A DNA stretch of 64,000 nucleotides from a virus (IMGVR_UViG_3300035698_011322:10658-74657); one strand, 5' to 3'. Positions 2,625 through 60,100 are shown, counted from the stretch's first letter. Notes: generated from the sequence alone by a model not told the origin. Program-made: numbers and translations.

Positions 2625-3307
2625 TAGAGTATTTTATCCAGCTTCATCGATTTCAGTTTGGATTTATATGATTCGAGTCTCTTCAAAAACTTCTTGTATT
2701 CTTTACCCTCACCCGAAAAAACCATTTTAAACCATTTATATATACCACCATGTTTACCATACTTCAGAAATTCTATTGCGGCTTGAAATGCAAAGGAATC
2801 AATCTCCACATCTGATCCAACATATTTCCAAGTATCTTCGGCTTCTAATTCCGATGGATCAATAAAAACAGCTTTAAGATCCGATACACTTATTTGAGTC
2901 AAGTGCTTAAATTCATGCGATAAAATATTCAAAAGATCTGAGAAGAATTGGTTCTTTCTTATATCCAAGAACATCTTATCTTTACCAGGTTTTGCAAATC
3001 TCTTAAAGAACTCTGAAAGACCTGTTTGTAAATGAACTGTTATTGATAGTTCTCCACCACCTATTTCCACTTCGGCACCTGACATATATCTATATATTTT
3101 ATGCTTCACTCTACCAATGTCAAATATAATAGGTAGATCTTTGTCCTTAAATAATATGTTTAGGATTTCTGTAATCTCTTTATCACTTGTTATCCATTTA
3201 TTGCTTTTCAGAAACTTATATAAGAGTTTAATTTTGGGTTTTATTATATACGCAACAAGTTTAATTTCTTCGGCTGTTGCTTCAACCATATATTGTTTTA
3301 ATCTCAT
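2624..3307 (-). CDS. HEXXH metallopeptidase-like protein
   Basis: LSHEFKHLTQ plus Y....EIDSFA. Confidence 0.55.
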   Translation of the reverse strand: MRLKQYMVEATAEEIKLVAYIIKPKIKLLYKFLKSNKWITSDKEITEILNILFKDKDLPIIFDIGRVKHKIYRYMSGAEVEIGGGELSITVHLQTGLSEFFKRFAKPGKDKMFLDIRKNQFFSDLLNILSHEFKHLTQISVSDLKAVFIDPSELEAEDTWKYVGSDVEIDSFAFQAAIEFLKYGKHGGIYKWFKMVFSGEGKEYKKFLKRLESYKSKLKSMKLDKIL

Positions 3308-4263
3308 TTATGCCATTCCCATGCTGTTTTTATAATTGTGTTTATGTCACTCTGTTTCGGCTCCCAGCCAAGCTCGTTTTTTAACTTCGATGGATCGGCA
3401 ATCAAAGTGTCAGGCTCGTTTTTTCTTCTACCAACCTCTATTATATTTATTCTTTTGCCTGAGATTTCTCTGACCTTATCGATTATTTCTCTTACAGAAT
3501 ATCCTCTATTATTTCCTATGTTATATACTGTGTATCCACTCTTCAAGGCATCAATTGCCAAAATATGAGCATTAGCAATATCATTAACATGGATGTAATC
3601 CCTTACCCCTGTTCCATCTGGTGTATCATAATCTGTTCCATATATTTTGAATTCTTTTGATATCATTAATAACGGTATAATATGTGTTTCGGGGGCATGT
3701 AACTCACCAATATTTCCACCAGATCCCGCCGCATTAAAATATCTCAAAATAACCGAATTCATGCCATCACAGTCTTTAAGAACATTTTCTATTATAAGCT
3801 TTGTCTTACCATAAACATTCTCTGGATTACAAGCTGTTTCTTCTTTTATAGGAATTTCTTTTGGATTACCATATACAGAGGCTGATGATGAGAAAATAAA
3901 ATTCTTGACCTTATTCTCCATCATAACATATAACAGATTAATTGTATTCGACACATTATTCTTGTAGTATTTTAAACTACTTGTATCAGATTCACTTACA
4001 ATCGAAAATGCCGCAAAATGCATAACAATATCAATACTATACTGTTTAAATAATCTTCTTAATAATCCAACATCACCGAAATCACCTATTATAGTTCTTG
4101 TGTCTTGTAGAAGATGATCACTACCTGTTGAAAAGTTATCTAATACAGTAACATCATAATCCTTTGTCTCCAATAACATCTTTACAACATGTGATCCAAT
4201 ATAACCAGCACCACCTATTACCAATATATTTTTATACTTCACCCTTTGCCCTTCTCTCTTCAT
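3304..4263 (-). CDS. galE: UDP-glucose 4-epimerase
   Basis: GGAGYIGSH, FSSSASVYG, YGKTK, LRYFNAAG, DGTGVRDYIHV. Confidence 0.93.
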   Translation of the reverse strand: MKREGQRVKYKNILVIGGAGYIGSHVVKMLLETKDYDVTVLDNFSTGSDHLLQDTRTIIGDFGDVGLLRRLFKQYSIDIVMHFAAFSIVSESDTSSLKYYKNNVSNTINLLYVMMENKVKNFIFSSSASVYGNPKEIPIKEETACNPENVYGKTKLIIENVLKDCDGMNSVILRYFNAAGSGGNIGELHAPETHIIPLLMISKEFKIYGTDYDTPDGTGVRDYIHVNDIANAHILAIDALKSGYTVYNIGNNRGYSVREIIDKVREISGKRINIIEVGRRKNEPDTLIADPSKLKNELGWEPKQSDINTIIKTAWEWHK

Positions 4264-4361
4264 AATTTACCCATTTAACATATAAATGACCACATTTATG
4301 GCATATGCCTTGACCACTTTTTTGTTTCCATTGGTGCTCACATTTCTGACACTTGAATGTA

Positions 4362-5069
4362 TTATACTGCATACCACGCATCGACTCCTTTATTAATTTT
4401 CTCAAGTGACAGAATAGTTGGAGATAGATACTTTTCTCCAGTTTCTATGAGTGTCTTCTTATGATCAATTCCAACTGGATTTTGTATTGGAGAGTTATAG
4501 AATCCAGCCATGAATTTATATGCGTTGACAATTACTTCATTTGTGAGCATGCCCTCATTATTATCTATCTCCATCCATGTTGAAAACTTCCCTCTATAGA
4601 AGTTCTTAGCAGCGTTGACATTCTTATGTATTTGTCTAATAAAATCAACATCGACTTGTCGCTCTCTCTTTGAGGCTCGCTCGATTGCTGTTTCCAATGA
4701 TGTGTTGATAAATATTATTGCAACATCATAGCCAAAGTATTCAAGTATTCCAACTCGCTTTAAAACTGCTGATGTTTTATTGGCAGTACCATCAACAGCT
4801 AATGGTAACATAGAATTTATATATAAGGTAAGTTGGTTCTTGTTTATTGTTTTAACTTTTAAACTTATCTTACCCCAATCCGTATTCCACCATTTCTTGA
4901 AAAGTGGAAATGATTTATCGGTGTTGACTATACGAGGTTCAATAGATCCAGATTTTACTTTTGATAATGTATATGATTTACCTGATCCACTACTACCACA
5001 CATAAAACAAGCTTTAAAAATTCCGCGATCCATAATCCCTTCAGTTATATAGTCTTCTAGTCTACTCAT
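4362..5069 (-). CDS. zeta-toxin-like P-loop kinase
   Basis: FKACFMCGSSGSGKS, VDGT, INTSLETAIERASKRER. Confidence 0.7.
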   Translation of the reverse strand: MSRLEDYITEGIMDRGIFKACFMCGSSGSGKSYTLSKVKSGSIEPRIVNTDKSFPLFKKWWNTDWGKISLKVKTINKNQLTLYINSMLPLAVDGTANKTSAVLKRVGILEYFGYDVAIIFINTSLETAIERASKRERQVDVDFIRQIHKNVNAAKNFYRGKFSTWMEIDNNEGMLTNEVIVNAYKFMAGFYNSPIQNPVGIDHKKTLIETGEKYLSPTILSLEKINKGVDAWYAV

Positions 5070-5389
5070 TTAATAACTCCGAATAATTGTTTTTTGTATG
5101 GGTGTTTTTTAGTATCTGTTTTGATTTCTTTTTTCGACTTCCCAGATCCTCTCCAATACGTGCTATTATATGATTGATCTTTAATTGAAGCACAGAACCC
5201 TTTGGCTTTCTGTGTATCGAAGCCTTCTTTACTACTCATTCTTAAGACACAGGCATCAAAGAAACCATGCTCAGTAGGATCTTTACCAATTGTCTTGGCA
5301 AACTTTGCTATGGAGTTCTCTGTCCATCCCTTAGAGGCAATTGGAGCCTCGTCTAATTCATCCACCATTAGCTTTTCAAAGAATTTCAT
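5066..5389 (-). CDS. hypothetical protein
   Basis: 107-aa ORF overlapping its neighbours in the operon. Confidence 0.6.
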   Translation of the reverse strand: MKFFEKLMVDELDEAPIASKGWTENSIAKFAKTIGKDPTEHGFFDACVLRMSSKEGFDTQKAKGFCASIKDQSYNSTYWRGSGKSKKEIKTDTKKHPYKKQLFGVIK

Positions 5390-5759
5390 TTATCTTTTTC
5401 TTATCCTCCTCTTCATCATCTTCTTCTGGTGGATCTTCTTCTGGTGGATCTTCTTCTGGTGGATCTTCTTCTGGTGGATCTTCTTCTGGTGGATCTTCTT
5501 CACCATCTTCTGGAAATGGCCCAACGGCCTCTATTTCCTTTTCAACATTATTCCACTTTTCGAGTTTATCTTCCAGATCAGATAATATAGCCTCTTCTGC
5601 ATCATCATTTGGATCACCAACCTTCGAAATGGCATTTTCTATAGATTTCTTATTCTGGCTGATCACTCTCTCAGAATACTTTTCACCAATCTCCGGCTCA
5701 TCAATATCAAGAGCTGATTGCACAGAATCCTCTTCTCTTATATATCTATTAAATCTCAT
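5376..5759 (-). CDS. acidic protein with EEDPP repeats (internal head/scaffold-like)
   Basis: MRFNRYIREE start, SD GGAG, five EEDPP repeats. Confidence 0.6.
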   Translation of the reverse strand: MRFNRYIREEDSVQSALDIDEPEIGEKYSERVISQNKKSIENAISKVGDPNDDAEEAILSDLEDKLEKWNNVEKEIEAVGPFPEDGEEDPPEEDPPEEDPPEEDPPEEDPPEEDDEEEDKKKINEIL

Positions 5760-5775
5760 AACTCACTCCTTCCCC

Positions 5776-6324
5776 TTATAGTGCCAGAATCAATAACAAT
5801 ATACTACCAATTGTTATTAAATACATTCCACCTCTATTTATCATATTATCTGTTTTATGTTCATATTTTTCATCTCGATACATATTTTCTGAATTGATCC
5901 ATAGCTCTCTATATGATATAACCTTCTCACGTTCTAGCATACTTAATTCTTTTAGAGCATTTATTTCATCTATATATGTATTTGTTATTGATTCATTAAC
6001 CAATAATATTTCTTTATATGTCTTCGCTAACTTAACCACAGCACCAACCTTAGCATATTCTTTAGGTGCTAGTAAGATATGAGTACCTTCTTCTATACTA
6101 CCAACAACTTCATAACTCAATTCACCTGTTTTCTTTATATATATGGGGAAAAGTTTATCTGGTTTTGGTAGATTATCTAAATCACTCTTTATATCATAAG
6201 AAGGTGTTTCATTAATTTGTAAATCTGGTGGTTTATATGGTGTAAATGACTTAGGGGCACAAGAAACAAACAAGAAAAGGAAGAGTATACACAATACTAT
6301 TCTTGATCTCATATATCTTCCCAA
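5776..6324 (-). CDS. lipoprotein with C-terminal TM helix (spanin-like)
   Basis: Lipobox LFVS-C after hydrophobic stretch; C-terminal GGMYLITIGSILLLILAL. Confidence 0.6.
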   Translation of the reverse strand: MGRYMRSRIVLCILFLFLFVSCAPKSFTPYKPPDLQINETPSYDIKSDLDNLPKPDKLFPIYIKKTGELSYEVVGSIEEGTHILLAPKEYAKVGAVVKLAKTYKEILLVNESITNTYIDEINALKELSMLEREKVISYRELWINSENMYRDEKYEHKTDNMINRGGMYLITIGSILLLILAL

Positions 6325-6656
6325 TCATCATTCATTTGTTTCTCTATTTCAGCAAGCTTATCTTCTTTTAAAACTACTTGTATGTCTCTTGAAGCCTCTT
6401 GAAGTATAACTTTTATCTTTCCTTTTGTTTCCTCTGAGGAAATTTCAGCAACTTCTATCTGTTTCATTATTATATCTTGCTCTTTGGTTTTAGCTGCAAT
6501 TTCTCCCTGTTTAGTTTTATTTAAAAACTTATTCTTAAACGCATCTATAATTTTTTCTTTCTTGTTTCTACCAAAGAACTTTGTTAATATTAAAGTTACT
6601 AAAGCAATTAAACACGCACCACCACCACCTATGAACAGAATACTTGATATATCCAT
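6309..6656 (-). CDS. N-terminal TM + coiled-coil protein (i-spanin-like)
   Basis: Single N-terminal hydrophobic helix, charged helical remainder, overlaps the lipoprotein gene. Confidence 0.5.
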   Translation of the reverse strand: MDISSILFIGGGGACLIALVTLILTKFFGRNKKEKIIDAFKNKFLNKTKQGEIAAKTKEQDIIMKQIEVAEISSEETKGKIKVILQEASRDIQVVLKEDKLAEIEKQMNDDWEDI

Positions 6657-6673
6657 TTTATTTCACACTCCTC

Positions 6674-7036
6674 TTATACATTTACATTTTCAATTTTTTT
6701 TGCTTTTTTATCATCTGATGCTTCGTTAATTTCTTTTAGTTTACGAACTTTATAAACCTCACGAACGGCTATAATCGAACCAGTTAAAGTAATATTAAAC
6801 GTACACCATGCTATAAAGGTATCTGTCAGAACCTTTATTTGACCCAATAATGCAGCAATTAATTCTGGTTTGACAGCCATCAAGCTTATTGCGATTTCCA
6901 TAAACCCAAATTGTGACATACAGATATATATAAAAATACCCGTTGACGCCAGAAATGGTAAAAGAAAAAACCAAACCTTTACTGATGCCAAATTTTGAAG
7001 AACCTTTTTACTAAACAATCTAAACATTTCTTTCAT
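6674..7036 (-). CDS. holin-like membrane protein
   Basis: 2-3 hydrophobic segments, charged C-terminus, first gene after a late promoter. Confidence 0.5.
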   Translation of the reverse strand: MKEMFRLFSKKVLQNLASVKVWFFLLPFLASTGIFIYICMSQFGFMEIAISLMAVKPELIAALLGQIKVLTDTFIAWCTFNITLTGSIIAVREVYKVRKLKEINEASDDKKAKKIENVNV

Positions 7037-7074: not shown

Positions 7075-7086
7075 TAGTTTGGGCAT

Positions 7087-7124
7087 AAAAAAGAGAAATA
7101 CAAATAAATCATATTTCTCTTTTG
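7087..7124 (-). terminator. intrinsic terminator after the Ubl operon
   Basis: AAAAGAGAAATA / TATTTCTCTTTT hairpin followed by a U-run on the minus strand. Confidence 0.6.
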
Positions 7125-7154: not shown

Positions 7155-8039
7155 TTATATAAGATTAACTTCCGGGCCTTCAAAGTCAGTACTAATTTTC
7201 TCCATCTCCGACATCAAATCCATTTCCTCTTCTAATGTCTGTTCTTTAGAAAAATCAAGTTCTTCGATTTCAGCATCAATCTCTTCAACTTCAGCCTCTG
7301 TTAAAACAGTAGGCAAACCTGTTTTTAGATTTATATTACGAGGCACTTGTTTACCCATAAAAACACCTGGTTTAGACCATAATTCATTCTTAGCACGTGT
7401 ATCCCATGACCCACCAGGATAGTTACTATAAACAACATTTGTATCATATGTTTTTTTCTTAATTTTCTCTTTAGCGGCTTTAATAAAATCTTCTTTGTCC
7501 AAAATACATTCAGTTCTAATCTTCACAATACTCTCAATGATTTTATAAGCACCACATGGAGTTGCCCATCTTACATGACCATTTATACCATCTTTTGAAA
7601 TACAAAGTGATATGTTATGATTCTGATTAATATACTTATCATCTGTCTGTGAAAATGAATTACCCATTGTATGGTGTGAATGTATAACACCAACTACTGG
7701 CAATTCATTAAACTCTTTACACATAATATTATCAACACTTCCAGTGCTTATCTCTTGATCTGGAATAAAGATATCAGTTATTTCAATAGTTTCACCAAAA
7801 TCACCAAGAAGATAAGCCAACCACTCAATGTTTGAATATTCTTCCATAAGTGCTTCAATCTTTTCTTTTACCAATGGTTGAATCCACACAATAAGATTCT
7901 CAGGTGCCTTACCACAATCTGTTAAACACTCTACCTCGGTTTCCCAATAATCTGGTTCTTTATCAGAGGCAATAACATTGATTTTATTTTGTACATGCAT
8001 ATTATTTTTCCCTTTCTTCTTTCTATTCCTTCTTGACAT
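7155..8039 (-). CDS. JAB/MPN metallo-isopeptidase with acidic tail
   Basis: E (IEWLAYLLG) ... VIHSHH....FSQTD JAMM motif; start MSRRNRKK with SD AAGGA. Confidence 0.85.
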   Translation of the reverse strand: MSRRNRKKKGKNNMHVQNKINVIASDKEPDYWETEVECLTDCGKAPENLIVWIQPLVKEKIEALMEEYSNIEWLAYLLGDFGETIEITDIFIPDQEISTGSVDNIMCKEFNELPVVGVIHSHHTMGNSFSQTDDKYINQNHNISLCISKDGINGHVRWATPCGAYKIIESIVKIRTECILDKEDFIKAAKEKIKKKTYDTNVVYSNYPGGSWDTRAKNELWSKPGVFMGKQVPRNINLKTGLPTVLTEAEVEEIDAEIEELDFSKEQTLEEEMDLMSEMEKISTDFEGPEVNLI

Positions 8040-8049
8040 TTTTATTCCT

Positions 8050-8628
8050 TTATATATACAATTCAATAAGATTTGTGCTAATTTCTTTATCATAGTATTT
8101 CATTATTTTATTATCAGTAAGAGCGGCTATAATACTAGCAGGAACAACCCATGATGAAATTTCAGTATATCCATCTTCAGCTTCTCCCCACTCGGCCACT
8201 CTATTATTGATAGAAATATGTTCACCATTATACCCCGCCTTAACATATTTCGCACCAATGTTGTCAGCAATTCCTTGATTTGTCATTTGTGATTTTATAT
8301 TATCAGTACAATCGACAACCCAATCTGTTTTCTCAGATGTCAATTCAGAATACTTAAACGGAAAACTATGAATTGTACAATCGGGTCTAATGGACTCAAC
8401 CATCATTCTTACAACATCCGTTTTATTTTTCCCAATAAACTTTAAAGGAATATCTATTCTATTAAGATTATGAGCCTCAAATATATCTGGGTCCCATACA
8501 CATATATTGTCTATACCTGATAAAACAGCAAACTTTGATACCCAGAACCCAATTCCACCAACGCCACATACGCTTATACTTATATTCTGATTTAATTTTA
8601 AACTTTCTTGACGATCATAAAATGACAT
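8050..8628 (-). CDS. ThiF/E1-like adenylyltransferase
   Basis: YDRQ, GVGGIG, D.D....NLNR, VVDCTDN. Confidence 0.9.
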   Translation of the reverse strand: MSFYDRQESLKLNQNISISVCGVGGIGFWVSKFAVLSGIDNICVWDPDIFEAHNLNRIDIPLKFIGKNKTDVVRMMVESIRPDCTIHSFPFKYSELTSEKTDWVVDCTDNIKSQMTNQGIADNIGAKYVKAGYNGEHISINNRVAEWGEAEDGYTEISSWVVPASIIAALTDNKIMKYYDKEISTNLIELYI

Positions 8629-8646
8629 TATTTACTTCCTTTCTAT

Positions 8647-9495
8647 TTAAGAGCCCCATACATCCAAATCTTCCCTTCTTGTATCCGCAGATATACCTGA
8701 TCTTCTAATTTGTTGATTCAAATTACCAAGTGTATCATCTTCACCATCCTTCGCAATATGTTTTAAAACTGTTGTTTTTCTTGGCAAGCCCCTTGGTGAA
8801 CTTGTAGCAATGGATCTTGTATTAATATTTTCTAAAACAGCCTCCGCATCTCTTGCTACTTTAATTATATCATCAGGTGATTTAAAACTTTTAGGATATG
8901 ACCAACGACCCCAGCAATCTGGATTGGATTGATGATAATGATCAAAATAACCAAGCCCAATAGGTTGTCTCGTTGATACACTAATAATCGTATCTCCATG
9001 AGTTTTTATCATAAAAACAACAGGTGATATCATTTTCTTTGAAAACTTCTTCTCAAGTAATTTACCATCTAGAGTCTTTGGCCAATAAACACCCTGAACC
9101 AACCAAATTGTTTCATGACCCGATCCCTTTAGAACAGACAAACCTCTTTCTGCATGACAAAATGTTACATTAGGCATGACACTAGAATTCTCAAGGGTTC
9201 TCTTTAATTCTTTTTCTTTACGTGAGTACTCTCTTTTCACTTGATTAAAATATTCAATCATCTCTGAGATCTTAGCATTTATCTTATCTCTGATTATCTT
9301 TTGCTGAGTATTAATCTTCTCTCTCAACTCATTGCGTATTTCATCTTCAACGGTTATAGGATTGTCTTCAACTGATTTGAACACAACCAATTTACCACCT
9401 ATACGCAGAGACATACCATCAGTCTTTATTTTATCTATATCAATTTCATTTAAATCATTCAAAACTGATTTAAATTGATCCATTTTTTGATCCAT
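8647..9495 (-). CDS. coiled-coil + prokaryotic E2-like protein
   Basis: HYH....DCWG resembles the E2 HPx..C active-site segment; lies between the Ubl and E1 genes. Confidence 0.55.
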   Translation of the reverse strand: MDQKMDQFKSVLNDLNEIDIDKIKTDGMSLRIGGKLVVFKSVEDNPITVEDEIRNELREKINTQQKIIRDKINAKISEMIEYFNQVKREYSRKEKELKRTLENSSVMPNVTFCHAERGLSVLKGSGHETIWLVQGVYWPKTLDGKLLEKKFSKKMISPVVFMIKTHGDTIISVSTRQPIGLGYFDHYHQSNPDCWGRWSYPKSFKSPDDIIKVARDAEAVLENINTRSIATSSPRGLPRKTTVLKHIAKDGEDDTLGNLNQQIRRSGISADTRREDLDVWGS

Positions 9496-9562
9496 TATTA
9501 TATCCTTTTACATTTGATTTTCACTCCCTAGTGCTCTTAAATACTAGGGAGTGAAGGTGTAA

Positions 9563-9835
9563 TCAAGTCCCAGCCACATCAAATGGTCTTATCTCAATAT
9601 TATCATTTTCTTCGATAAGTGCCGGTGCAGCTGAGGGTAACACTTCATCGCTATTATAAAAAACACGAAACTTTCCCATACCAGCGTCTGCAGCATAATC
9701 TCTTACTGTGTCTTTAAATGATACACCTGGATCCAATTCGATTTTAGAACCATTTACAACGATATAAGTTCCGCCATCCCTTGGTACTTCATTAACCTCT
9801 GCAGGATTTCCACCATCCCAATATTCATCATTCAT
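9563..9835 (-). CDS. ubiquitin-like beta-grasp protein
   Basis: 90 aa with beta-grasp-like pattern, ending IEIRPFDVAG-T; leads the E2-E1-JAB operon. Confidence 0.7.
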   Translation of the reverse strand: MNDEYWDGGNPAEVNEVPRDGGTYIVVNGSKIELDPGVSFKDTVRDYAADAGMGKFRVFYNSDEVLPSAAPALIEENDNIEIRPFDVAGT

Positions 9836-9905
9836 TTTTTAACTCCTCCTTTTCAATTTTTTATTATAATTTAATATAACAAATTTTTACAACAATGTAA
9901 ACCAA

Positions 9906-10646
9906 CTATATTTCTCTTGAAAACAAACAATATTGCTCGGACTCATCAGCAGACTTAACAAACAATATTCCCAAATCCTGCTCCTCTCTATATGCGAACC
10001 TTATAGAAAAGTTTTCAAAACTATCCTCAATCACAGCCATAATATTTACCACATCTTTATAGTCAAAGGACAATACAAGATCATCATGAACTACATCATC
10101 AATGCCGAATCTTAATCCATTTGAGAACTCATTTGATTTATCCGATGTTTCAATAAACAACTTATTTTCTTTCACTTCGAAATATATCTTCTGAAACCTT
10201 GAACCGATCTTCTTAATCTTCTTAAAGTGATCCATGAAATCATCATCAAGTTCTTTTTCATAAAACCATGTTACATCATTCCTTATTGATTCAGACCCAA
10301 ATTTATTTATAATAGTAGGTGAACAAAAATTAAGTATAGTCTTCTGCTTACCAGACTTTAATACAATCCTATTCTCAAAGATCTGGGTGTCGACCTCTTC
10401 CGAATCAAACAAATTCAAGAATGGAATGACATTACTTGATGGCTCCGAGAAATTAAGTTCAATTTCATCACCTGTATCAAAAACATCGTTATCCACATTC
10501 ACTATTGAAATACTACCATCATCGCTTGATATCATTCTTGATTTGGCCTTGCTGTCCGCAAATTTTATCTGAACATTATTAATTGAAAAATTTATTGTGG
10601 CCTTTTTTAACAACTCTTTTAGGTTGCTTACATTCGTTTTTATCAT
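9906..10646 (-). CDS. DNA sliding clamp (gp45/PCNA-like)
   Basis: 246 aa, acidic, two-domain clamp-like pattern, adjacent to clamp-loader genes. Confidence 0.7.
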   Translation of the reverse strand: MIKTNVSNLKELLKKATINFSINNVQIKFADSKAKSRMISSDDGSISIVNVDNDVFDTGDEIELNFSEPSSNVIPFLNLFDSEEVDTQIFENRIVLKSGKQKTILNFCSPTIINKFGSESIRNDVTWFYEKELDDDFMDHFKKIKKIGSRFQKIYFEVKENKLFIETSDKSNEFSNGLRFGIDDVVHDDLVLSFDYKDVVNIMAVIEDSFENFSIRFAYREEQDLGILFVKSADESEQYCLFSREI

Positions 10647-11028
10647 CTATCTTTAACTCCTTTTTAAATGTCACAAGCATCTTTGCTTCTCTTTTTGACA
10701 AATCTGTTTCTTCGACTACCTTTAAGACATCTTTCATAAACTGTTTTTCTTCAGTTGTCTTCTTGATCCACTTCACATATCTTCTGCCCTTTGGAACAAC
10801 AGCCATATAATAGTCATATATAGATTTATCAGGTATCTTAAACTGTAAGTGATTTATTTTCTCAACATATTGAATTAAATGTTTATCATGGCTCAACCAC
10901 ATTGATAACATATATGCAGATGCAAGTTTCTTGTCATATGAGTATTTTATTACCTTTGTATATATCTGATTCAAGAAGGTAAAGAGATTCGGTTCACTAC
11001 TTTTCTTCTTCTTAGCCATATTACACAA
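10579..11028 (-). CDS. clamp loader small subunit (gp62-like)
   Basis: LFTFLNQI...YMLSMWLS...YDYY...PKGRRYVKWIK. Confidence 0.75.
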   Translation of the reverse strand: MCNMAKKKKSSEPNLFTFLNQIYTKVIKYSYDKKLASAYMLSMWLSHDKHLIQYVEKINHLQFKIPDKSIYDYYMAVVPKGRRYVKWIKKTTEEKQFMKDVLKVVEETDLSKREAKMLVTFKKELKIDDKNECKQPKRVVKKGHNKFFN

Positions 11029-11127: not shown

Positions 11128-12057
11128 TCATACTATTTTACCATATATCATATCAACAACCATGTGCATAAAATTTATTTCTTTTATATCTGATATAGCA
11201 TTTCTATGTAAATGCTCACCTATCATTAGAATAGCACCACCTGGTTCTTTGAACTCACCCGCGTTCTCAAATAGATAACTATATAGCTCTGTATAATCGA
11301 TATAATTTGATTTGAGAATTTGTCGTACAGTTTCAATATCCTTTAGTGTGATACCTCTTAATATCTTATCCCATACACCCTCTGACTTTGATAGTCTACT
11401 GCCAATCAAAACACCATCAATACAATTTTCTTGTAGAACATTAATAGTTTTTCGTATGTCTGGATAGCATTTCTCAACAATAGTTTTTATATGAGCAACA
11501 CTTTCCTTGGTAAGTTTTATCTTCTCACTCCTTAAGATCTTCAAACAAAACTTAGCTATATCAGGCTTAGGTGGGTTCTCTACCTTCAACACAGTGAAAC
11601 GTGATCTCAGTTCTGGAATAACATACCTATCATAATTACACAGAAGAACAAATCTAGTAATCTTTTGTACGTCTTCCATCATTTGTCTTAGCATCTTTTG
11701 GGCACCCTGTGGGCCTGAGGATAATGAGTCGCCCTCATTTAGAACAACAATTTTCATATCCCCATGAGAGGCCATAGATGTAGCAAACCGCCTAACCTTA
11801 TCTCTCATTGTATCTATACCTGTTTCATCAGAAGCATTAATCCACAGTTTAGGTAAGGCTGACTGCTCCAAAAGTATATGGGCAAAGGTACCTTTGCCAA
11901 TACCAGGACTACCATACAACATTATGTTTGGTAATTCTATAATAAACTTTCTAAACCTTTTTCTTATATCTTCATTTAGAACCATATCATCTATAGATTT
12001 TGGTTCATATCGAAATGACCAGATTGATTTACTATTCATTATATACACTCTATACAT
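11128..12057 (-). CDS. clamp loader AAA+ subunit (gp44/RFC-like)
   Basis: W..RYEPK, GSPGIGKGT, INASDETGID, LRSRF, YPDIRK. Confidence 0.9.
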   Translation of the reverse strand: MYRVYIMNSKSIWSFRYEPKSIDDMVLNEDIRKRFRKFIIELPNIMLYGSPGIGKGTFAHILLEQSALPKLWINASDETGIDTMRDKVRRFATSMASHGDMKIVVLNEGDSLSSGPQGAQKMLRQMMEDVQKITRFVLLCNYDRYVIPELRSRFTVLKVENPPKPDIAKFCLKILRSEKIKLTKESVAHIKTIVEKCYPDIRKTINVLQENCIDGVLIGSRLSKSEGVWDKILRGITLKDIETVRQILKSNYIDYTELYSYLFENAGEFKEPGGAILMIGEHLHRNAISDIKEINFMHMVVDMIYGKIV

Positions 12058-17478: not shown

Positions 17479-18175
17479 AGTATTATTCCTTTTTATTTAA
17501 TTCTGGATGAATAAAAAATTCTCTTTCTCATTCATTATTTTATCCTTTATTATACTATACTTAGCTAAAAATGTAAACACATTCTCTTATATTAATCGTT
17601 TATTTGATATTTGATTATCAATACCTGCTTTAAAGGCAGCCTGACAAAATGATTCTTTGACTATAGGTTTTCTATATTCACCATCATATCCCGCAAAGTA
17701 AGCATCATGTAAAGATGAGCACCGCATTCTATCCGGTGGATGGTTTATGTAATGCTCATACATTTTCTGCAATTCTAGTATTTTAAATCGTTTTATCATC
17801 TACGTATTCATCCCCCCTCCGTGATGTAACACATAGACCCAGAATGAAAAATCCTGCAATCGTGCCTATGAAAATCCCTGTTATAAAGGCGATCCAAATC
17901 ATATTGTCTCCTATCCTCTTCTTAATTATTTTGATACATAATTATATCTCTAAAGCTAAAATATAGTGCATAATATTATACCATAATGGATATATTTCTG
18001 GCACTCCAATTGCGAATAAGAGTGTCCAAAATAAAATTACTACAAAATTAAACATTATTTTAATCATTATCGATATTCTCCTTTATATTTTAAAAGCGGT
18101 CAGGATTCCAACCTGAGATAACCGTGATTTGATCAGATCACCGACTGATAGCCACTTATATCCCCGCTTTAATGT

Positions 18176-19027
18176 TTACGCTGCCAAGAGCAGTTGATTT
18201 TCCTCATCACCATACAGATCCCCAGCCAGTCTACCCATAGTGCCGTAACGGGCTGAGAAAATATTGGAACCATTTCTAGCCTTGGTTTCGTGGGTCATAA
18301 GGTAAGTAAGGATATTAAAGGCACCCCATTTGGTGTCAGCCAATTTTTGTTCGTTCAAAAGAGGCTCATAAGATTCACCAATAGTATTTGCCATTTTTTC
18401 GGACAAGTACTGAGTTGCCTTAGATTTACCAGTGGTAGGTTTTGTATGAAGACTAAGAAAATCATCGAAAGCCTTTTGATCAAAGGATTCTTTAGTCCAT
18501 TTTTCCCACACCTTCGCGTTTTTGTGAAACATGTTGAACTTGAAGGCGAAGGATTCTCTCAGCCTATCAACATTACCATCATAGTGAGCGAATGACTCTG
18601 AGAACAAGTTTTTCTTACCCATGATCATACCATTAGAGCACATCCAACGAAAACCCATAAGATTGTAACCGAAAGCGGTTCTACCATCATAACCATTATA
18701 CACTTCAAGGCACACACCGACCACATCGGAAGGCAAGATCTCAGCGTTCAAACGACTATCATCGAAAAGGAACTGACGCTTCCACCTTTTGGTAGTCGAA
18801 TCCATATGATCCTTGACCTTGGCAACACCAAACTCGCTGACTGCTTCTTCAAACAAATTACTGACAGCCTGATTTTCAACAATATCATAACCAGGTGAAA
18901 CAAAACCAATCACAGTATTCAGTTCATCATTAACGAGTGCTACTTTGTTAGGTATCTCAACACCCGAAGCCGTATGAACGGTTTCTTTCTTTACATTGAA
19001 AAACGGATTTCTTGGTTCGATATACAT
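18176..19027 (-). CDS. DUF932-like protein
   Basis: VSPGYDIVEN, NGYDG..AF, FRWMCSNGM, TKWGAFN..T...TH. Confidence 0.75.
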   Translation of the reverse strand: MYIEPRNPFFNVKKETVHTASGVEIPNKVALVNDELNTVIGFVSPGYDIVENQAVSNLFEEAVSEFGVAKVKDHMDSTTKRWKRQFLFDDSRLNAEILPSDVVGVCLEVYNGYDGRTAFGYNLMGFRWMCSNGMIMGKKNLFSESFAHYDGNVDRLRESFAFKFNMFHKNAKVWEKWTKESFDQKAFDDFLSLHTKPTTGKSKATQYLSEKMANTIGESYEPLLNEQKLADTKWGAFNILTYLMTHETKARNGSNIFSARYGTMGRLAGDLYGDEENQLLLAA

Positions 19028-19030
19028 ATT

Positions 19031-19104
19031 TCACACTCCTTTTTGATTTCTAAGAACATTGTAACACAAAATAAAGTTTGTGTAAATCACTTTTTAATTT
19101 CTTT
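19031..19104 (-). promoter_or_regulatory. repeated early promoter + stem-loop + SD cassette (copy 1)
   Basis: TTTACA-N17-TACAAT with internal ACACAAA/TTTGTGT inverted repeat and AGGAG; near-identical copy at 23431-23505. Confidence 0.8.
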
Positions 19105-19125
19105 TACTCTCCTCTATATATTGTT

Positions 19126-19377
19126 TTAGTTTATTCCCCCTTTATACGAAAAAAACATATCTGCTGATTTAAACATGACACTGCAATTTTTGCAGATACA
19201 ATATTCTATCCAGCTGCTCCCCCCAGGCCCTAATATCCCATTGTTTGATACGATTTCAGTGTATCCTTTATCTGAAAGACATACTGGGCATATACAGTCG
19301 TCCGTTATGTCAGTTGCTTCTATCTTGCTGTGTCTATCACACACGGCATCTTGTTCAAACGGTACATCTCTTAACAT
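19126..19377 (-). CDS. small Cys-rich protein
   Basis: CPVC...CKNC; SD AAGGAGG. Confidence 0.55.
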   Translation of the reverse strand: MLRDVPFEQDAVCDRHSKIEATDITDDCICPVCLSDKGYTEIVSNNGILGPGGSSWIEYCICKNCSVMFKSADMFFSYKGGIN

Positions 19378-19502
19378 AATACCTCCTTAGTTTGTCGCTC
19401 CCTGATTGGTTTCATTTTTCTTTTGTATCGGGATTAATATATTCAGTACACTTGCCTTCTTTGTCAACATAAATCCCCATTTAATCATGCTTTGGATTGT
19501 GT

Positions 19503-20372
19503 TCATGCGGCCTTGTCTTTGACGGCGGTTTCAATTTCGTACAGCGCCTTGCAATACTCATAAGCCATGCAACATTTCTCGTAGTCGTCACCAGGCTCGA
19601 CTTGGCTTCTATATTTGTCTGTGGCAACGATCTTGTCCCACTCAGCCATGGTATGAAGGTTGCATCCAATTTGCAGAAATTTGTCGTAAAGTGTGACATT
19701 AAAGCTACACGTACCGATTAAATTAATGACAGTTTTAGTGATTTTCGCATCGCCGGAGACCCTCGCATCGCCGGAGACTATCGCATCACCACAGACCTTC
19801 GCATCACCACAGACCCACGCATTGCTGGAGACCCCCGCATTGCCGTAGACCCATGCATTGCCGTAAACCTTCGTATCACCACAGACCCTCGCCTTGCCGT
19901 AGACCCATGCATTGCCGTAAACCTTCGTATCACCACAGACCCACGCATTGCCGTAAACCTTCGTATTACCATAGACCCTCGCATTGCCGTAGACCCATGC
20001 ATTACCATAGACCCTCGCATTGCCGTAGACCCATGCATTGCCGTAAACCTTCGCATCACCACAGACCCACGCATTGCCGGAGACATCCACATCGCCGTAG
20101 ACCATCGCATCACCGCAGACCTCCGCATCGCCGGAGACCTTCGCATTGCCGGAGACCTTCGCATTGCCGGAGACCCTCGCATTGCCGGAGACCCACGCAT
20201 CGCCGAAGACCCACGCATCGCCGAAGACATCCAGGTTTTTACCAGATTCCACAAACCCACCCTTTTCTCTTTTTTCCACGTCTCCAAACGAGATTAGCGC
20301 CTCAATGCGGAATAAGGTTCGGCCAAGAAATGTTTTTGTTTCTTTGGTGAGTTTGTACTTTTTGTTTTTCAT
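19503..20372 (-). CDS. hexapeptide (G[ND]AxVx) repeat beta-helix protein
   Basis: About 26 hexapeptide repeats after KYKLT..LFRIEAL..GG.VES..NL; SD GAGG before ATG 20372. Confidence 0.8.
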   Translation of the reverse strand: MKNKKYKLTKETKTFLGRTLFRIEALISFGDVEKREKGGFVESGKNLDVFGDAWVFGDAWVSGNARVSGNAKVSGNAKVSGDAEVCGDAMVYGDVDVSGNAWVCGDAKVYGNAWVYGNARVYGNAWVYGNARVYGNTKVYGNAWVCGDTKVYGNAWVYGKARVCGDTKVYGNAWVYGNAGVSSNAWVCGDAKVCGDAIVSGDARVSGDAKITKTVINLIGTCSFNVTLYDKFLQIGCNLHTMAEWDKIVATDKYRSQVEPGDDYEKCCMAYEYCKALYEIETAVKDKAA

Positions 20373-20497
20373 GTTTTCCTCCTTTAAGTTAGGCAGCGAG
20401 GCTTTACCAGGGCTTGTCTCCCTGGCGTCACCCGTTGTGACTTGCCCCACCGTTGTTGCCGAAGTGCGTAAGCATTGAAGGTGGCTTCGGCAAAACA

Positions 20498-21208
20498 TTA
20501 AATCTTAATTCCAATGTTGTAAAAAACCAGTGCGAATATTGCCGCGAATGCCGCTATTTCTATTAGTATTTTTTTCATGTTCCCCCCCCTTTTCTTTACA
20601 ATCATTGATGTTAATCTACGATTATATTTATCTAATATTTTTTCGTTTATGTTAGGATCCCAATCACCCTTGGTAATGTCCCTAGTAGCATCCCAGGCAG
20701 CGTTCCAGGCAGCGGCTATGGCAGTGCCCCCGGCAGTGCCCCCGGCAGCTGCCCTGGCAGCGGCCCCGGCAGCGGCCCTGGCAGCAAGAGTGGCAGAGTA
20801 CCAGGCAGCATCCCAAGCAGCGGTCCAGGCAGCGACTCTTAATAAGTCATTGCCTGTTTTTAAATATTCGGTGACAATAGCAGGTGCCTCCCATAAGTGT
20901 ATAACGTCAAGAGCACAGCGACGAGTAAAGTCATTGAGTACATCTGTTGCATCATATCCCCACAGATATTTTCGTTTAGTAGCTGCGATTTTATCAGCAC
21001 CAATATCAAATTTTCCAGAAAGTTCTACTCGCCAGATTATCGGCCCGGGAGAATATAACAGCGCATCAATTATTCTTTGAGATCCGTGTAGCCCTTGAAG
21101 GCAAAGTCGTGGTATACAATTAACTTTGTGCATTCGGTTTTTCCGAATTTGTCGGCAATCACCATATTTAAGCTTTCTATCAAGTTGAGAAAACCACCAT
21201 ACTTTCAT
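20498..21208 (-). CDS. Ala/Trp-rich phage protein
   Basis: LC..GLHGS, AAWDAAW repeats; SD GGAGGAG before 21208. Confidence 0.65.
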   Translation of the reverse strand: MKVWWFSQLDRKLKYGDCRQIRKNRMHKVNCIPRLCLQGLHGSQRIIDALLYSPGPIIWRVELSGKFDIGADKIAATKRKYLWGYDATDVLNDFTRRCALDVIHLWEAPAIVTEYLKTGNDLLRVAAWTAAWDAAWYSATLAARAAAGAAARAAAGGTAGGTAIAAAWNAAWDATRDITKGDWDPNINEKILDKYNRRLTSMIVKKRGGNMKKILIEIAAFAAIFALVFYNIGIKI

Positions 21209-21209
21209 T

Positions 21210-21407
21210 TTATTCTCCTCCTTTAGTTGGCTCGGGTATCGGGCCAGCCCATTTGCTATTATCTGATAATCCCCAGCCGATAGTACATACATCGCCATTC
21301 AAAATCTTGACAAAAACTACCCGTGGACTGTTATTGCCTGGGTGAGATTTTGGTGGTTTTTCCCAATACCAACCCATCGTTGTTGGTTTTTCTTTTGTCC
21401 ATTTCAT
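21210..21407 (-). CDS. hypothetical protein
   Basis: MKWTKEKPT..GWYW...WAGPIPEP pattern. Confidence 0.6.
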   Translation of the reverse strand: MKWTKEKPTTMGWYWEKPPKSHPGNNSPRVVFVKILNGDVCTIGWGLSDNSKWAGPIPEPTKGGE

Positions 21408-21417
21408 TTTGTATTCC

Positions 21418-21630
21418 TTATTCTACCGTTACGGCGTCCATTACAGTTGTTAGTAAATGGGTATAGTCGCCCGTGGTGGCCTCGTCGATTACTGATGTTA
21501 TATAATCCTGATCCGCCCCGGCTGCTTTGAGTGCTCGTTTCATGGTTCCAATTATCGCAAAAGCATTTCCAGATTTTCCTTCTAAAGAAATTGTCGGTTT
21601 TGTTTTTGGTATTTCCATGTTTTCCTCCAT
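21418..21630 (-). CDS. hypothetical protein
   Basis: GNAFAIIG...GDY.HLL pattern. Confidence 0.6.
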   Translation of the reverse strand: MEENMEIPKTKPTISLEGKSGNAFAIIGTMKRALKAAGADQDYITSVIDEATTGDYTHLLTTVMDAVTVE

Positions 21631-21678
21631 TTCCCAAAAATGTTGTTCTTAATCCCTTAGTGTCAAACTTACTTGTTC

Positions 21679-21984
21679 CTAATATCCTCCATCAAACGGT
21701 TGGGTTCTCCTTGACGCCATAATCTCCGCTCTACTCTTACCTTTTTTCGGAACAGAATCCCCTCCTGTACATCCTGCAGAAAATCTATATACATCCTGCA
21801 GAACATTTAACTCTTCTTTCAAAGTTGTAATCTCGTTTGATAAAATCTTCTCTTTGAGCAAGAGCCATCTATCGGGCCATGTATCCCTGGCATCTGATTC
21901 ATATTCACTACTCAATGGTTTTTGAGCAATTATTTCATTCATCAATTCTATGATCTTTGAACTTTTCATAACCCGTCTATCCAA
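21679..21984 (-). CDS. hypothetical protein
   Basis: Co-oriented ORF. Confidence 0.45.
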   Translation of the reverse strand: MDRRVMKSSKIIELMNEIIAQKPLSSEYESDARDTWPDRWLLLKEKILSNEITTLKEELNVLQDVYRFSAGCTGGDSVPKKGKSRAEIMASRRTQPFDGGY

Positions 21985-22205
21985 GATATAGATTTTAATT
22001 CGTTATTATCATTAAGCTGAAAAGATATTTTCCCATCTTTAGGAACCTCAGGATAAAGCACCCTTATAGCATCCCAAAAGTTGTCTGAAGTTCTTTTGAC
22101 AAGAATTGCACTTTCCTGAAATGCTACTCGCGCCGCATCATGTGATTCTCTTAGTGTTTCTAAATGATCTACGTGGTCTTCTTCCACTTCAATTCTGTTT
22201 AACAT
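21966..22205 (-). CDS. hypothetical protein (MLNRIEVEE start)
   Basis: SD AGGAG; N-terminus duplicated in 22251..22487. Confidence 0.55.
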   Translation of the reverse strand: MLNRIEVEEDHVDHLETLRESHDAARVAFQESAILVKRTSDNFWDAIRVLYPEVPKDGKISFQLNDNNELKSISWIDGL

Positions 22206-57108: not shown

Positions 57109-60100
57109 ATGAAGGAAAATAACAATTATGGTTTAAGTGAAAATGCAGTAAAAATCTTTAATGATCTTTATTGTTTTCAACATGAATCGATAGAAGATGC
57201 GTTTAAAAGAGTTGCAAAAGAATTTGTAGCAAAGGAAGAAGATTTTGATATAGCGTTTAATTTGTTATCTAGTGGATATTGGCGACCCAATACACCAACA
57301 TGGCTTAATGCAGGAACTAGTCATAAGATATTTTCAGGGTGTTTTGTAACTGGTCTTCGTGATTCAATGAATTCGATATATGAAGTGGCTGATACTGCTC
57401 GTAAGATTTTTCAACATGGCGCTGGTATTGGTATACCGATTGGAAACCTAAGAGAACAAGAGGCATGGATATATGAAAGTAATGCTGACATGCTCCCAAG
57501 AGGTAAAAGTTGTTTAACTGGTGATACCATTTTATTGAATGATAATGGATCTACGTCAATAGAATCACAAAAAATAACTATAAAATGGTTATATGATTTT
57601 TATCAAAATGTAAAAAATCCAAAATATATGGTTAGATCTATGCTAGATGATTTTGGAATTGGTAAAAATATAATTACAGATGTTATTTATAATGGGAAAA
57701 GACCAGTTTATAAAATTGAAACAAAAGATGGTTATAAAATAAAGGCAACATTAAATCACAGATTTTTATCAGAGAATGGTGAATGGAAAAGATTGGAAGA
57801 CTTTTCTTTAAAAGAAAAGATTGGTGTAAATGGAAAAACAAGACCAATTTCTGAATGTAAAAGATGTGGCAAGGTTAGATTATTAAGAGGGAATAGAAGT
57901 AAATATTCTGAATTATGTGAAAATTGTGTTGTTTCTACATTTTATGGCTGTTCTTTAAAAGGATCAAAAGAAGAATTTGAGAAAAGAAGTACGGCCAGAA
58001 AAGAATATAGAAATAGAGTAGAAATTAGGGAGTATTATTCTGAAATAAATTCTGGTGAAAATAATCCTATGTGGCGTGGTGATTTTGCTAATGAAACCAC
58101 AGCACGAAGTAGAAATAAAAATATTTATTTATGGAATAGAGAAAACAATATATGTGAGAGATGCAATGAAAATAAAAAAAGAATAGAAGTACATCATAAA
58201 GATGGTAATCCATATAATAATGAAATTAATAATTTAGAAGTTTTATGTATTCAATGTCATAATGATGAGCATAGAGAAAGAAGAGCAAAAGGTAACTATA
58301 GATTAACAAAAGAAGTATATTTTGATGAAATAATAAATATAGAATACATTGGTATTGATGATGTTTATGATATTAAAATGAAAGAACCTTATCATAATTT
58401 TATTGCTAATGGTTTTGTTTCTCATAATAGTGGGCCTATAACATTCATGAAATTATATGATGCTGTAGGTGAAACAACTAAAAGTGGTGGAAGAGTAAGG
58501 CGAGCCGCCATTCTTTGTTCTATGCCTATATGGCATCCAGATGTACTTGATTTTATTAAATGTAAAGAAGAGGATGGTAGGTTGTCAAGCATGAATATAT
58601 CTGTTTCTGTAACCGATAAGTTCATAGAGGCACTTGAAAGTAATATACCATTTGATCTTGTGACTCCTTATAATGGGAAAAAGGCTAGTGAAGTAAACCC
58701 ACAAGAAGTATGGGATATGATTTCTCTAATGTCATGGAAGACCGCTGATCCTGGTATATTCTTTATTGATACAGTCAATAAGTATAATCCACTATCATCT
58801 GATATTCTTATAGAGACAAGTAATCCATGTATTGTTGGTGATACAAAAATTATGACTGACAAGGGTGAAATTGAGATAAAAAGTCTTTTGATGGATATAT
58901 TTGATTATAAAATAGCAACATATAACATTGAAAGTAATGAAATAGAATGGGAAAATATCGTGTGGGGTGAAAAAACAAGAGAACATACTGATATTATAAG
59001 AATTGAGTTTGATGATGATAGTTTTATAGAATTGACACCAGATCATATGGTATATACTGAGAACAGAGGATATGTGAAAGCAGTTGAACTTAACAATGAA
59101 GATATCTTATATAAAAGCGCCACAATGGGAATGGAGATCTTGCAGATTGGAAAAAAAAGAATAAAAAGAGTTAAGGTAATAAAGAACCAAGATGTGTATG
59201 ATATAAAAACAGAAAGCAATCATAATTTTTTTGCTAACAGAACGTTAGTACATAATTGTGGTGAACAGTTCTTGATACCTAATAATTGTTGTAACTTATC
59301 AGCTATTAATATTAGTAAGTTTATTAAAGATGATGATTATGATTGGGAAAGTTTGTATAAATGTGCTTTTGATATAATGGGTTTAATGGATAACGTTATT
59401 GATGTGATGGATTATCCGGATGATAAGTTCAAAGAGAATTCTATAAAATATAGACCCGTGGGTATAGGTATCATGAGCCTTGCTGATTCACTTTTTGAAC
59501 TTGGATATCGATATGATGGGCCTGAGGGTAGAAAATTTGCTGGTAAGATTATGAGAACAATAACAACTGCATGTGTTCATAAAAGCACTTTATTAGCAAA
59601 AGAGCGTGGTACATTCCATAACTATGACAAGTACAGAGAAAAAGTAGAAGGAATAATAGAACAACATATAGGTCTGAATGATTCTGATGTAACACCTTCC
59701 ACAGAAGTAGTGTGGGATTTGGTTAAAGAGTATGGTCTTAGAAATGTTCAGTTTACTACTTGTATGCCTACGGGTTGTTTAACAGAAAACACAATGATAT
59801 CATCTAAAAATTCTGGTGTTAATTATATAAAGAATGGTGATAGATGTATAGATGAAAAAACAAAATCCGATAATGGCGATTATACATATAAAAATCATTA
59901 TGATCAAGGTATACAGCCAGTAAAGAAAATAGTTACAAAAAAAGGATATGAAATAGAAGGTACATATCATCATAAATTAAGAGTTTTAGAAAATCATGAA
60001 TATATATGGAAAAGAATAGATGATATTGAAATTGGTGATAATATTATTATGAGGAAAAATTTTATTCATAGTGATGTTTTATCAAATGAATTTTTTAATG

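Follow-up and report, generated by a model that had tools for sequence, protein, structure and literature searches.

We analysed a stretch of 64,000 nucleotides from a viral contig (IMGVR_UViG_3300035698_011322:10658-74657; this whole stretch is called the window) and found four minus-strand, co-oriented open reading frames (ORFs), directly after gp44-gp62-gp45, that encode a ubiquitin-like protein (Ubl), an E2-like protein, an E1 and a JAB metallopeptidase. We consider it probable (roughly 0.65) that these genes form a Ubl conjugation pathway run by the phage itself, one that resembles Bil or Cap2/Cap3 in its working but is a member of neither. Of the four parts of the module, three are strongly reduced or divergent. 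Its owner is an uncultured T4-like jumbo phage of the lytic type, with a related clade that carries the same module. An earlier reading made from the DNA alone (the sequence-only reading) had described four co-oriented genes here, all of which are present on the minus strand (Table 1), and had proposed that the phage owns conjugation machinery. Every one of its component calls holds, that of the E2 at the level of fold and motif, and from these parts we infer conjugation itself.

The 282-aa protein had been called an E2 from its motif and its context, and the models point to a UBC fold; the lack of such a fold, which the sequence-only reading had named as grounds for refutation, was looked for and not observed. 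The full-length AlphaFold2 (AF2) model begins with an N-terminal segment that is poorly predicted, though conserved (R31, G33). A helix of some 55 residues (49-103) comes next, then an alpha/beta domain modelled with confidence (105-248), and last a flexible tail with a conserved RRSGI ... D-V-W-x-x motif at its end. Modelled alone, the domain has a predicted local distance difference test score (pLDDT) of 92 and a predicted template-modelling score (pTM) of 0.85. When the domain was compared with 48,161 PDB representatives by a method independent of Foldseek, ranks 1-24 were all UBC E2 or RWD domains, with Z scores of 6.4-4.6 over 108-121 aligned residues, among them UbcH10 (Z 6.4, 115 residues, 4.3 Å), 1yrv (Z 5.9) and Ube2K (Z 5.7). 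Below rank 24 came UEV domains, then BubB (Z 4.3) and the CBASS CdnG-E2 (Z 3.6), and the full-length model had the same structural neighbours as the domain-only model.

The family has an invariant block, F184-x-H186-Y187-H188-x5-C194-W195-G196. The cysteine of the DCWG motif that the sequence-only reading had singled out is C194; it is invariant in 46 aligned homologues and is found in the remote relatives as well. These remote relatives, which are 320-615 aa long (E 1e-6 to 1e-18), keep the signature HYH-x3-4-[DN]-C-x-G and the 'IN..S' helix that follows it, and some of them bear extra SH3-like domains, which hints that such additions are variable targeting modules. In the model, the loop that connects strand 4 (169-176) with helix 207-220 contains H186-Y-H188...C194, placed as HPN...Cys is in the layout of E2s, a match at the level of layout and not of residue superposition. 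Because the Z values are modest, we base the E2 assignment on the uniform make-up of the hit list, on an alignment that covers about 115-120 of 150 residues, and on the motif. On these grounds of fold and motif we accept the 282-aa protein as having a predicted UBC-like fold with a catalytic-type Cys.

A word-indexed database gave 143 homologues of about 280-300 aa, and an exhaustive hidden Markov model search with the domain profile against 1.84 billion cluster representatives returned 214 matches, 76 of them at E ≤ 1e-30; the matching clusters are metagenomic and are named 'hypothetical protein'. Among the Pfam families UQ_con and Prok-E2_A-E, there was no match at E ≤ 1 for the window protein and, among the families listed, none at E ≤ 0.1 for the 45 other aligned homologues or at E ≤ 0.01 for 10 remote relatives. 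The lone trace on the sequence side is a lead from ESM features to a Prok-E2_D cluster (0.87). We assign the protein to no described E2 sequence family. Searches of PDB profiles with the full-length and domain alignments turned up nothing beyond chance matches, for example SIR3 and influenza HA2.

In the disordered tail of the E2-like protein (8647-8730), two short motifs are conserved, LNQxxRRSG[IV] and, at the C-terminal end, [DE]-x-[VIF]-W-x-x-COOH, and both are kept in relatives of 437-452 aa that have extra N-terminal SH3-like repeats. The tail is probably a docking peptide for some partner. We also considered a clamp-binding role for it, which finds no support: the C-termini of related phage DNA polymerases (...DSIFG, ...LNLFFN, ...FNFFFGG, ...GLFFS) differ from the tail motif. 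The window's own DNA polymerase is cut by the contig end.

The Ubl ends ...RPFDVAG-T, so that one residue follows Gly89, as the sequence-only reading had it, and among its homologues ...RPYDVAG is conserved. The 24 homologues that we aligned share a conserved core of some 68 residues, preceded by a variable N-terminal extension that a part of them lack; A88 is the same in all, and 23/24 have G89. The protein ends exactly at Gly in 9 of the 24, and in the rest 1-4 further residues follow that bear no relation to one another (T, K, R, A, I, F, M, SK, RAN-R, NVVLV). The Ubl has the conserved C-terminal Gly of beta-grasp modifiers, either terminal or predicted to be exposed by processing, and a conserved AG followed by variable tails is the classic signature of a trimmed modifier with a reactive Gly carboxylate. 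Searches of Pfam, NCBIfam, PHROGs and PADLOC gave no match that would name the family. In PDB profile searches, SUMO and a ubiquitin design came out on top, yet without significance (E ~0.4-0.5); both align in register over the 'KFRVFLNGEEI' strand-turn of the Ubl. In an ESM Atlas model (pLDDT 0.68), residues 21-89 overlap with clusters annotated as ThiS at template-modelling (TM) scores of 0.50-0.64, and the modelled fold is likely beta-grasp.

Both the E1 and the JAB calls are above their Pfam cut-offs. The E1 matches ThiF (PF00899) at E 2.3e-20, with 73.2 bits against a cut-off of 28.1, and its best PADLOC matches are generic Cap2-type E1-E2 models (8e-12). In 18 phage sequences, the residues of the ATP/Mg site are invariant (R6-Q7, G22xGGxG27, D46xD48, N54xxR57, K69, D106xTD109), and the only conserved Cys is the one inside DCTD. 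Canonical and Bil-type E1s have an IAD-AAD-CYS arrangement, while this protein is a single domain, too small to hold a Cys domain or a Zn site. Judged by these motifs, the 192-aa protein is an adenylation-only minimal E1. After the ThiF core, residues 147-160 form an invariant block (W147...G153-Y154...S159-W160) with no conserved Cys. The invariant Asp-Gly-Tyr in it (Y154) recalls the crossover-loop Tyr of Bub and is, by this analogy, a candidate for a Bub-like oxyester site.

The JAB protein matches Prok-JAB (JAB/JAMM metallopeptidases, PF14464/PF01398) at E 5e-7, with 30 bits against a cut-off of 25. Its zinc site is complete in the window protein, with the Glu of EWLAYL and HSHHTMGNSFSQTD (E...HxHx7SxxD), and the JAMM motif is intact in 18/18 sequences (the window protein and 17 homologues). 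The ORF as first called (7155-8093) is a longer form that overlaps the E1 gene; a start at 8039 (MSRRN...), with a Shine-Dalgarno-like AAAGGAA 7 nt upstream, is more likely. We do not count the module as a PRTRC system, a cassette of ParB-related and ThiF-related genes (TIGR03734-03742), since of that set there was only a sub-threshold 12-bit trace of PRTRC_A on the JAB, against a cut-off of 101.8. The sequence-only reading had linked the JAB to the extra residue of the Ubl, and in the pathway proposed below this enzyme would trim the tail of 0-4 residues after the conserved AG.

Conservation of the genes as a set also counts for a conjugation pathway. In 24 IMG/VR loci with a relative of the E2-like protein (36-77% E2 identity), the order gp44-gp62-gp45-Ubl-E2 is found in 24/24, the gp44 match being cut off or outside the locus in two of them. 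The E1 gene comes next after E2 in 20/24, and the JAB gene then follows in 19; the twentieth locus, L007, is cut by the contig end inside the E2 gene. In the four others (L010, L014, L015, L017), a glycosyltransferase-like gene and gp32 follow E2 in place of E1-JAB. The longest of these split records (97 kb, 47% complete) has E1 and JAB side by side at a distance of about 20 kb from Ubl-E2. The other two split records searched, fragments with a completeness of 8% and 34%, gave no match. All four genes thus co-occur in the one split record of sufficient length, with the Ubl-E2 pair still at the clamp. Phages with a Ubl that already ends in Gly keep the JAB gene too, which suggests that the JAB deconjugates in addition to maturing the Ubl.

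Outside these uncultured phages we found no relatives. Searches (tblastn) with the E2-like protein and the E1 against 50,697 deposited phage genomes and with the E2-like domain against 72,556 plasmids gave no match, and neither did blastn of the locus. A scan of 185,579 GTDB species genomes, made with a single narrow degenerate peptide pattern, found no relative, and no related loci were found for the remote relatives P0226 and P0219. As far as we searched, the module is confined to phages. Our literature search found no paper that describes a phage-encoded Ubl-E2-E1-JAB module.

This distribution bears on whether the genes serve the phage as a counter-defence, in which the JAB strips host Ubl off phage proteins or cGAS-like enzymes off their targets, or the phage Ubl, E2 and E1 titrate or mis-tag components of Bil, CBASS/Pycsar Cap2-Cap3 or Bub. 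Bacterial E1/E2/JAB systems do act against phages (PMC10557695, PMC10097602, PMC11601596), the E1 scores against the PADLOC Cap2-type models, the module has an early-gene-like placement with a promoter-like site, and its confinement to phages fits as well. However, the JAB alone would suffice to strip host tags, and counter-defence genes are usually sporadic and not, as here, syntenic and core-like. Because Ubl, E2 and E1 are strictly co-conserved down to 36-40% identity, it appears that the phage's own conjugation reaction is under selection. Counter-defence is also compatible with a phage-run pathway that has host defence proteins as its targets, and differs from it in purpose and not in mechanism. 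As a separate explanation, we consider it unlikely.

Several observations weigh against a conjugation pathway. Foldseek searches of the PDB with the full-length and domain models of the E2-like protein gave no match at E ≤ 0.001, and the weak rows include Cap2 and the E2 of Bil (8tz0_C, 8tyz_C). The Z values of the UBC neighbours reach 6.4 at most, and the E2 assignment is a structural one: Pfam, NCBIfam, PHROGs and PADLOC returned only coiled-coil noise for the 282-aa protein (e.g. Syntaxin_2), and PDB profile searches with the E2-like alignments found no PDB E2. A canonical E1~Ubl thioester is unlikely because the E1 has no conserved catalytic Cys and no Cys domain. Among the sequencing runs listed, there was no RNA run that matched the stretch. 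Finally, sulfur-carrier pathways, too, have Ubl-like proteins that are paired with an E1 and a JAB.

A sulfur-carrier or acyl-adenylate biosynthetic module would have a ThiS/MoaD-type Ubl that the E1 adenylates and that is turned into a thiocarboxylate or serves small-molecule activation, for example in nucleotide or DNA modification, with the JAB only maturing or recycling the carrier and the Cys protein acting as a persulfide or acyl relay instead of an E2. JAMM peptidases are known to serve sulfur carriers (CysO/Mec+, QbsE/QbsD), which counts for this explanation, as do the size and type of the E1, which are those of ThiF/MoeB (also its best NCBIfam matches), its want of a catalytic Cys, the ThiS annotation of the structural clusters nearest to the Ubl, and the position of the module amid nucleotide- and DNA-metabolism genes. 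On the other hand, among the scanned window ORFs beside the module and in two split-module loci there was no sulfurtransferase, rhodanese, cysteine desulfurase, ThiG/MoaE-type acceptor or radical-SAM protein. The Ubl ends in Ala-Gly where ThiS and MoaD usually end in Gly-Gly, its best profile matches, though weak, are SUMO and ubiquitin and not ThiS, and a conserved UBC-like partner with a Cys placed as in the layout of E2s is lacking in sulfur-carrier systems. Weighing both sides, we find biosynthesis of this kind quite improbable.

We favour phage-run conjugation, and from the gene content, motifs, fold similarity, synteny and conservation that we observed we infer its chemical steps throughout. 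The JAB would cut off whatever follows the conserved Ala-Gly in the 90-aa Ubl, be it one residue or more. The E1 would then adenylate the exposed Gly89, presumably as a homodimer like ThiF/MoeB in which the N-terminal RQ acts in trans. Since the E1 has no conserved catalytic Cys, Cys194 of the E2 would then attack the Ubl-adenylate directly, or the transfer would proceed via a non-Cys E1 intermediate. The resulting E2~Ubl thioester would pass the Ubl to target lysines without a separate E3, with the N-terminal segment, the long helix and the conserved C-terminal tail of the E2 supplying recognition of partner or target, and the JAB would also reverse conjugation.

As for the targets, our leading but speculative candidates are replisome proteins or other early proteins of phage or host. 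Replisome-type targets are suggested by the location of the module in the replication block and of Ubl-E2 always beside the clamp gene. In its most specific form, this would be a Cys-less, adenylation-only E1 that hands the Ubl directly to a new family of coiled-coil-bearing E2/E3 hybrids, with the replisome, for example the sliding clamp, as target. The lone pointer to the clamp is that Ubl-E2 is beside gp45 in 24/24 loci, even when E1-JAB is about 20 kb off. Clamp synteny among related phages is weak evidence for targets, and the E2 tail is unlike the clamp-binding tails of the polymerases. We regard this specific version as a rather doubtful one.

The closest known parallels to the phage module are bacterial. 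Bil (BilABCD, types I and II) is a bacterial ISG15-like anti-phage system (also Hor et al. 2024). In the Bil system described by Chambers et al. (PMC10557695), BilA has one Ala after Gly97 that is removed by the JAB, and conjugation requires both E1 and E2; BilD is an E1 of about 500 aa with IAD, AAD and CYS domains, a catalytic Cys417 and a Zn site. Like Bil, the phage module has a free Ubl, a Cys E2 of UBC-like fold, an adenylating E1 and a JAB, with no E3 in either, and both Ubls have a short tail after the reactive Gly, which in the phage is one Thr after Gly89. In contrast to Bil, the phage E1 has 192 aa, a single adenylation domain and no conserved Cys, the phage E2 is a new sequence family with a long N-terminal helix and a HYH..C.G motif, and the owner is a T4-like phage and not a bacterial defence island. 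The Bil-type PADLOC models did not match the phage Ubl, E2-like protein or JAB.

With CBASS Cap2/Cap3, the module shares a ThiF-type adenylation domain, a JAB partner and a non-canonical E2 without C-terminal helices. In CBASS, however, one fusion protein combines E1 and E2, and the CD-NTase supplies the 'Ubl' with its own C-terminus, whereas the phage has separate genes and a dedicated 90-aa Ubl. No CD-NTase or effector families were matched among the scanned neighbours of the module, which are replication genes or unassigned ORFs. In Bub (6E/DUF6527; Ye et al., PMC11601596), the E1 has no catalytic Cys, and a Tyr of its crossover loop forms an oxyester with the Ubl. Bub therefore has a Cys-less E1 within a working conjugation pathway, and BubB is among the structural neighbours of the phage E2-like domain (96 residues, 3.3 Å, at the Z of 4.3 given above). 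The Bub E2 uses a Ser (oxyester), while the Cys of the phage E2-like protein is invariant, and Bub always has the BubE/DUF6527 serine protease, whereas a Pfam search gave no DUF6527 match among the four phage module proteins.

The structures nearest to the phage domain are those of eukaryotic E2s (UbcH10, Ube2K, Ubc13, UbcH5, UbcH7), with Z 5.2-6.4 over about 115-121 residues; they share the four-stranded sheet and the His...Cys loop followed by a helix. They differ in sequence (6-12% identity), in having HPN where the phage protein has HYH, and in lacking its insertion between strands 2 and 3 (145-154), its additional N-terminal region of about 100 residues and its conserved C-terminal tail. 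Sequence homology to eukaryotic E2s was not detectable in the PDB profile searches.

The only phage Ubl systems described before are pairs of Ubl and JAB without conjugation, the lambda/T1 tail-assembly protein I and the JAB of protein K, which like the module discussed here combine a phage Ubl that has a C-terminal Gly with a JAB (Iyer et al. 2006, PMC1779556). By analogy, the Ubl could be a non-conjugating assembly or chaperone protein of the kind proposed for protein I, only cleaved or serving as a scaffold, with the 282-aa protein as a structural partner. The lambda/T1 systems, however, have no E1 and no E2, belong to the tail module and have their Ubl fused to another domain. Here, an active-looking adenylating E1 is strictly conserved, the module is in the replication block and not the tail block, and the Ubl is free-standing and not fused to a tail protein, so an assembly role is very improbable. 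What is new in the module is the E2 family, the minimal E1 and the viral owner; the chemistry is already known.

The arrangement of the genes suggests that the tag and the enzymes are expressed separately. The gap between the E2 stop and the E1 start is 18 nt, and that between the E1 stop and the JAB start is 10 nt. The 67-nt Ubl-E2 spacer, in contrast, contains the strong hairpin that the sequence-only reading had reported there, a 13-bp perfect stem (-23.1 kcal/mol, z -4.55) that 0/200 shuffles folded as well as. When the Ubl-E2 spacers of 20 related loci were folded, nearly every one gave a long perfect or near-perfect hairpin directly downstream of the Ubl stop, and these hairpins are unrelated in sequence. 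The exceptions are L013, with no hairpin, and a few loci where it is weaker. About half of the related loci have a T-run after the hairpin, which is terminator-like, and in several we noted by eye a TTGACA...TATAAT-like pair after it. Because the structure is kept at a fixed position despite the turnover of its sequence, the hairpin appears to be functional.

These spacer features indicate that the Ubl gene may end a transcription unit or an attenuated segment, with E2-E1-JAB as a separate, tightly coupled unit. The single four-gene operon that had been proposed needs amending in that the conserved hairpin or terminator sets the Ubl apart from E2-E1-JAB. The tag should accordingly be predicted to be more abundant than the enzymes, and the earlier suggestion that the hairpin raises Ubl stoichiometry fits this predicted arrangement. 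The early-type promoter proposed upstream of the Ubl gene exists as a sigma-70-like site (Table 1), but such matches are not enriched in this AT-rich region (21 observed against 16.3 +/- 4.4 in shuffles), which makes it weak evidence. The proposed terminator after JAB corresponds to an A/U-rich hairpin with a U-run (z -3.4), but it fails the G+C criterion of a consensus terminator scan, which found 0 terminators.

Table 1. Positions of the module genes, the adjoining clamp and clamp-loader genes and the expression signals (window coordinates, except where a related locus is named).
Feature	Position	Strand	Description
gp44 clamp-loader ATPase	11128-12057	-	Pfam AAA and Gp44_lid
gp62 clamp-loader small subunit	10579-11028	-	Pfam Phage_clamp_A
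gp45-like sliding clamp	9906-10646	-	position and synteny are the only basis for the name
Sigma-70-like promoter match	9873-9901	-	TTTACA-17-TATATT with TG, between clamp gene and Ubl
Ubl, 90 aa	9563-9835	-	variable N-terminal extension (YWD motif) and beta-grasp-like core, ~residues 21-89
Hairpin after Ubl stop	9520-9555	-	13-bp perfect stem, no U-run in the window phage
E2-like protein, 282 aa	8647-9495	-	UBC-like domain ~105-248 in AF2 model
Minimal E1, 192 aa	8050-8628	-	single ThiF/MoeB-type adenylation domain
JAB/JAMM metallopeptidase, 294 aa	7155-8039	-	basic N-terminus, JAB core, variable acidic C-terminal extension
Probable terminator of E2-E1-JAB unit	~7084-7122	-	A/U-rich 14-bp hairpin, then UUUUUU
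Sub-clade replacement of E1-JAB	L010 5889-7630; L014 5838-7635		364-aa glycosyltransferase-like gene, 217-233-aa unknown gene, then gp32

The window comes from a 74.7-kb IMG/VR viral contig that is about 31% complete according to CheckV, which implies a genome of about 200 kb or more. The sequence-only reading had placed the module downstream of clamp and clamp-loader genes, and this position is confirmed by the Pfam assignments of gp62 and gp44 and, for the gp45-like ORF, in which a Pfam search found no family, by position and synteny. Other T4-type genes around the module are a gp32-like single-stranded DNA-binding protein, an NAD-dependent ligase, a primase, an exonuclease and a ribonucleotide reductase. 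The large subunit of the last (1586 aa; 57109-61869, plus strand) has HNH-endonuclease and recombinase-like segments that interrupt its PHROG matches. These interruptions are probably due to one or more inteins or insertions of homing endonucleases. At about 26000, the GC skew and the coding strand change sign, with minus-strand genes to the left and plus-strand genes to the right, which marks a divergent transcription or replication boundary. Among sequencing runs, we found only partial DNA matches (share ≤ 0.24), in salt-lake and marine metagenomes.

Downstream of the JAB gene on the minus strand (5776-6324 and 6309-7036), there are a lipoprotein-like ORF, whose signal peptide ends LFVSC, and two small membrane proteins. 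Of the ORFs downstream of JAB, only the 120-aa one (6674-7036) is common to the closest relative, L002, and the lipoprotein-like and small membrane ORFs are outside the conserved module. Beyond them, a 127-aa acidic protein (5376-5759, minus strand) has a perfect five-fold PPEED repeat (EEDPPEEDPPEED...) that is encoded by a tandem DNA repeat. At 3304-5069 (minus strand), an NAD-dependent epimerase/dehydratase (E 5e-50) adjoins a Zeta-toxin/AAA_33-like P-loop kinase, and these two may be auxiliary genes for sugar-nucleotide or cell-wall-precursor pathways. The region 18000-22000 is a G+C-rich island (0.41-0.45 against 0.28-0.35 elsewhere) whose ORFs 19503-20498 and 20498-21298 match only PHROGs of unknown function (phrog_5070/7964), and it may be a recently acquired segment.

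Experimental evidence for E1/E2/JAB conjugation of a Ubl in prokaryotes is, to our knowledge, limited to bacterial systems that act against phages (CBASS Cap2/Cap3, Bil and Bub); cells are so far the only owners in which the chemistry is known to have been characterised, and they mostly use it to defend themselves against phages. A virus that owns a complete and strongly conserved set would reverse the known direction of this arms race, or would reveal protein tagging as a regulator of phage replication. The new E2-like family comprises about 214 representative clusters, all metagenomic and none annotated, and its partner E1 is smaller than any other seen in a system of this type. The module could therefore show both a minimal machinery for Ubl transfer and a transfer from E1 to E2 that does without an E1 cysteine, and with four small proteins its reconstitution should be easy. 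If the clamp is the target, the module would be a viral analogue, in the prokaryotic world, of the ubiquitination and SUMOylation of PCNA.

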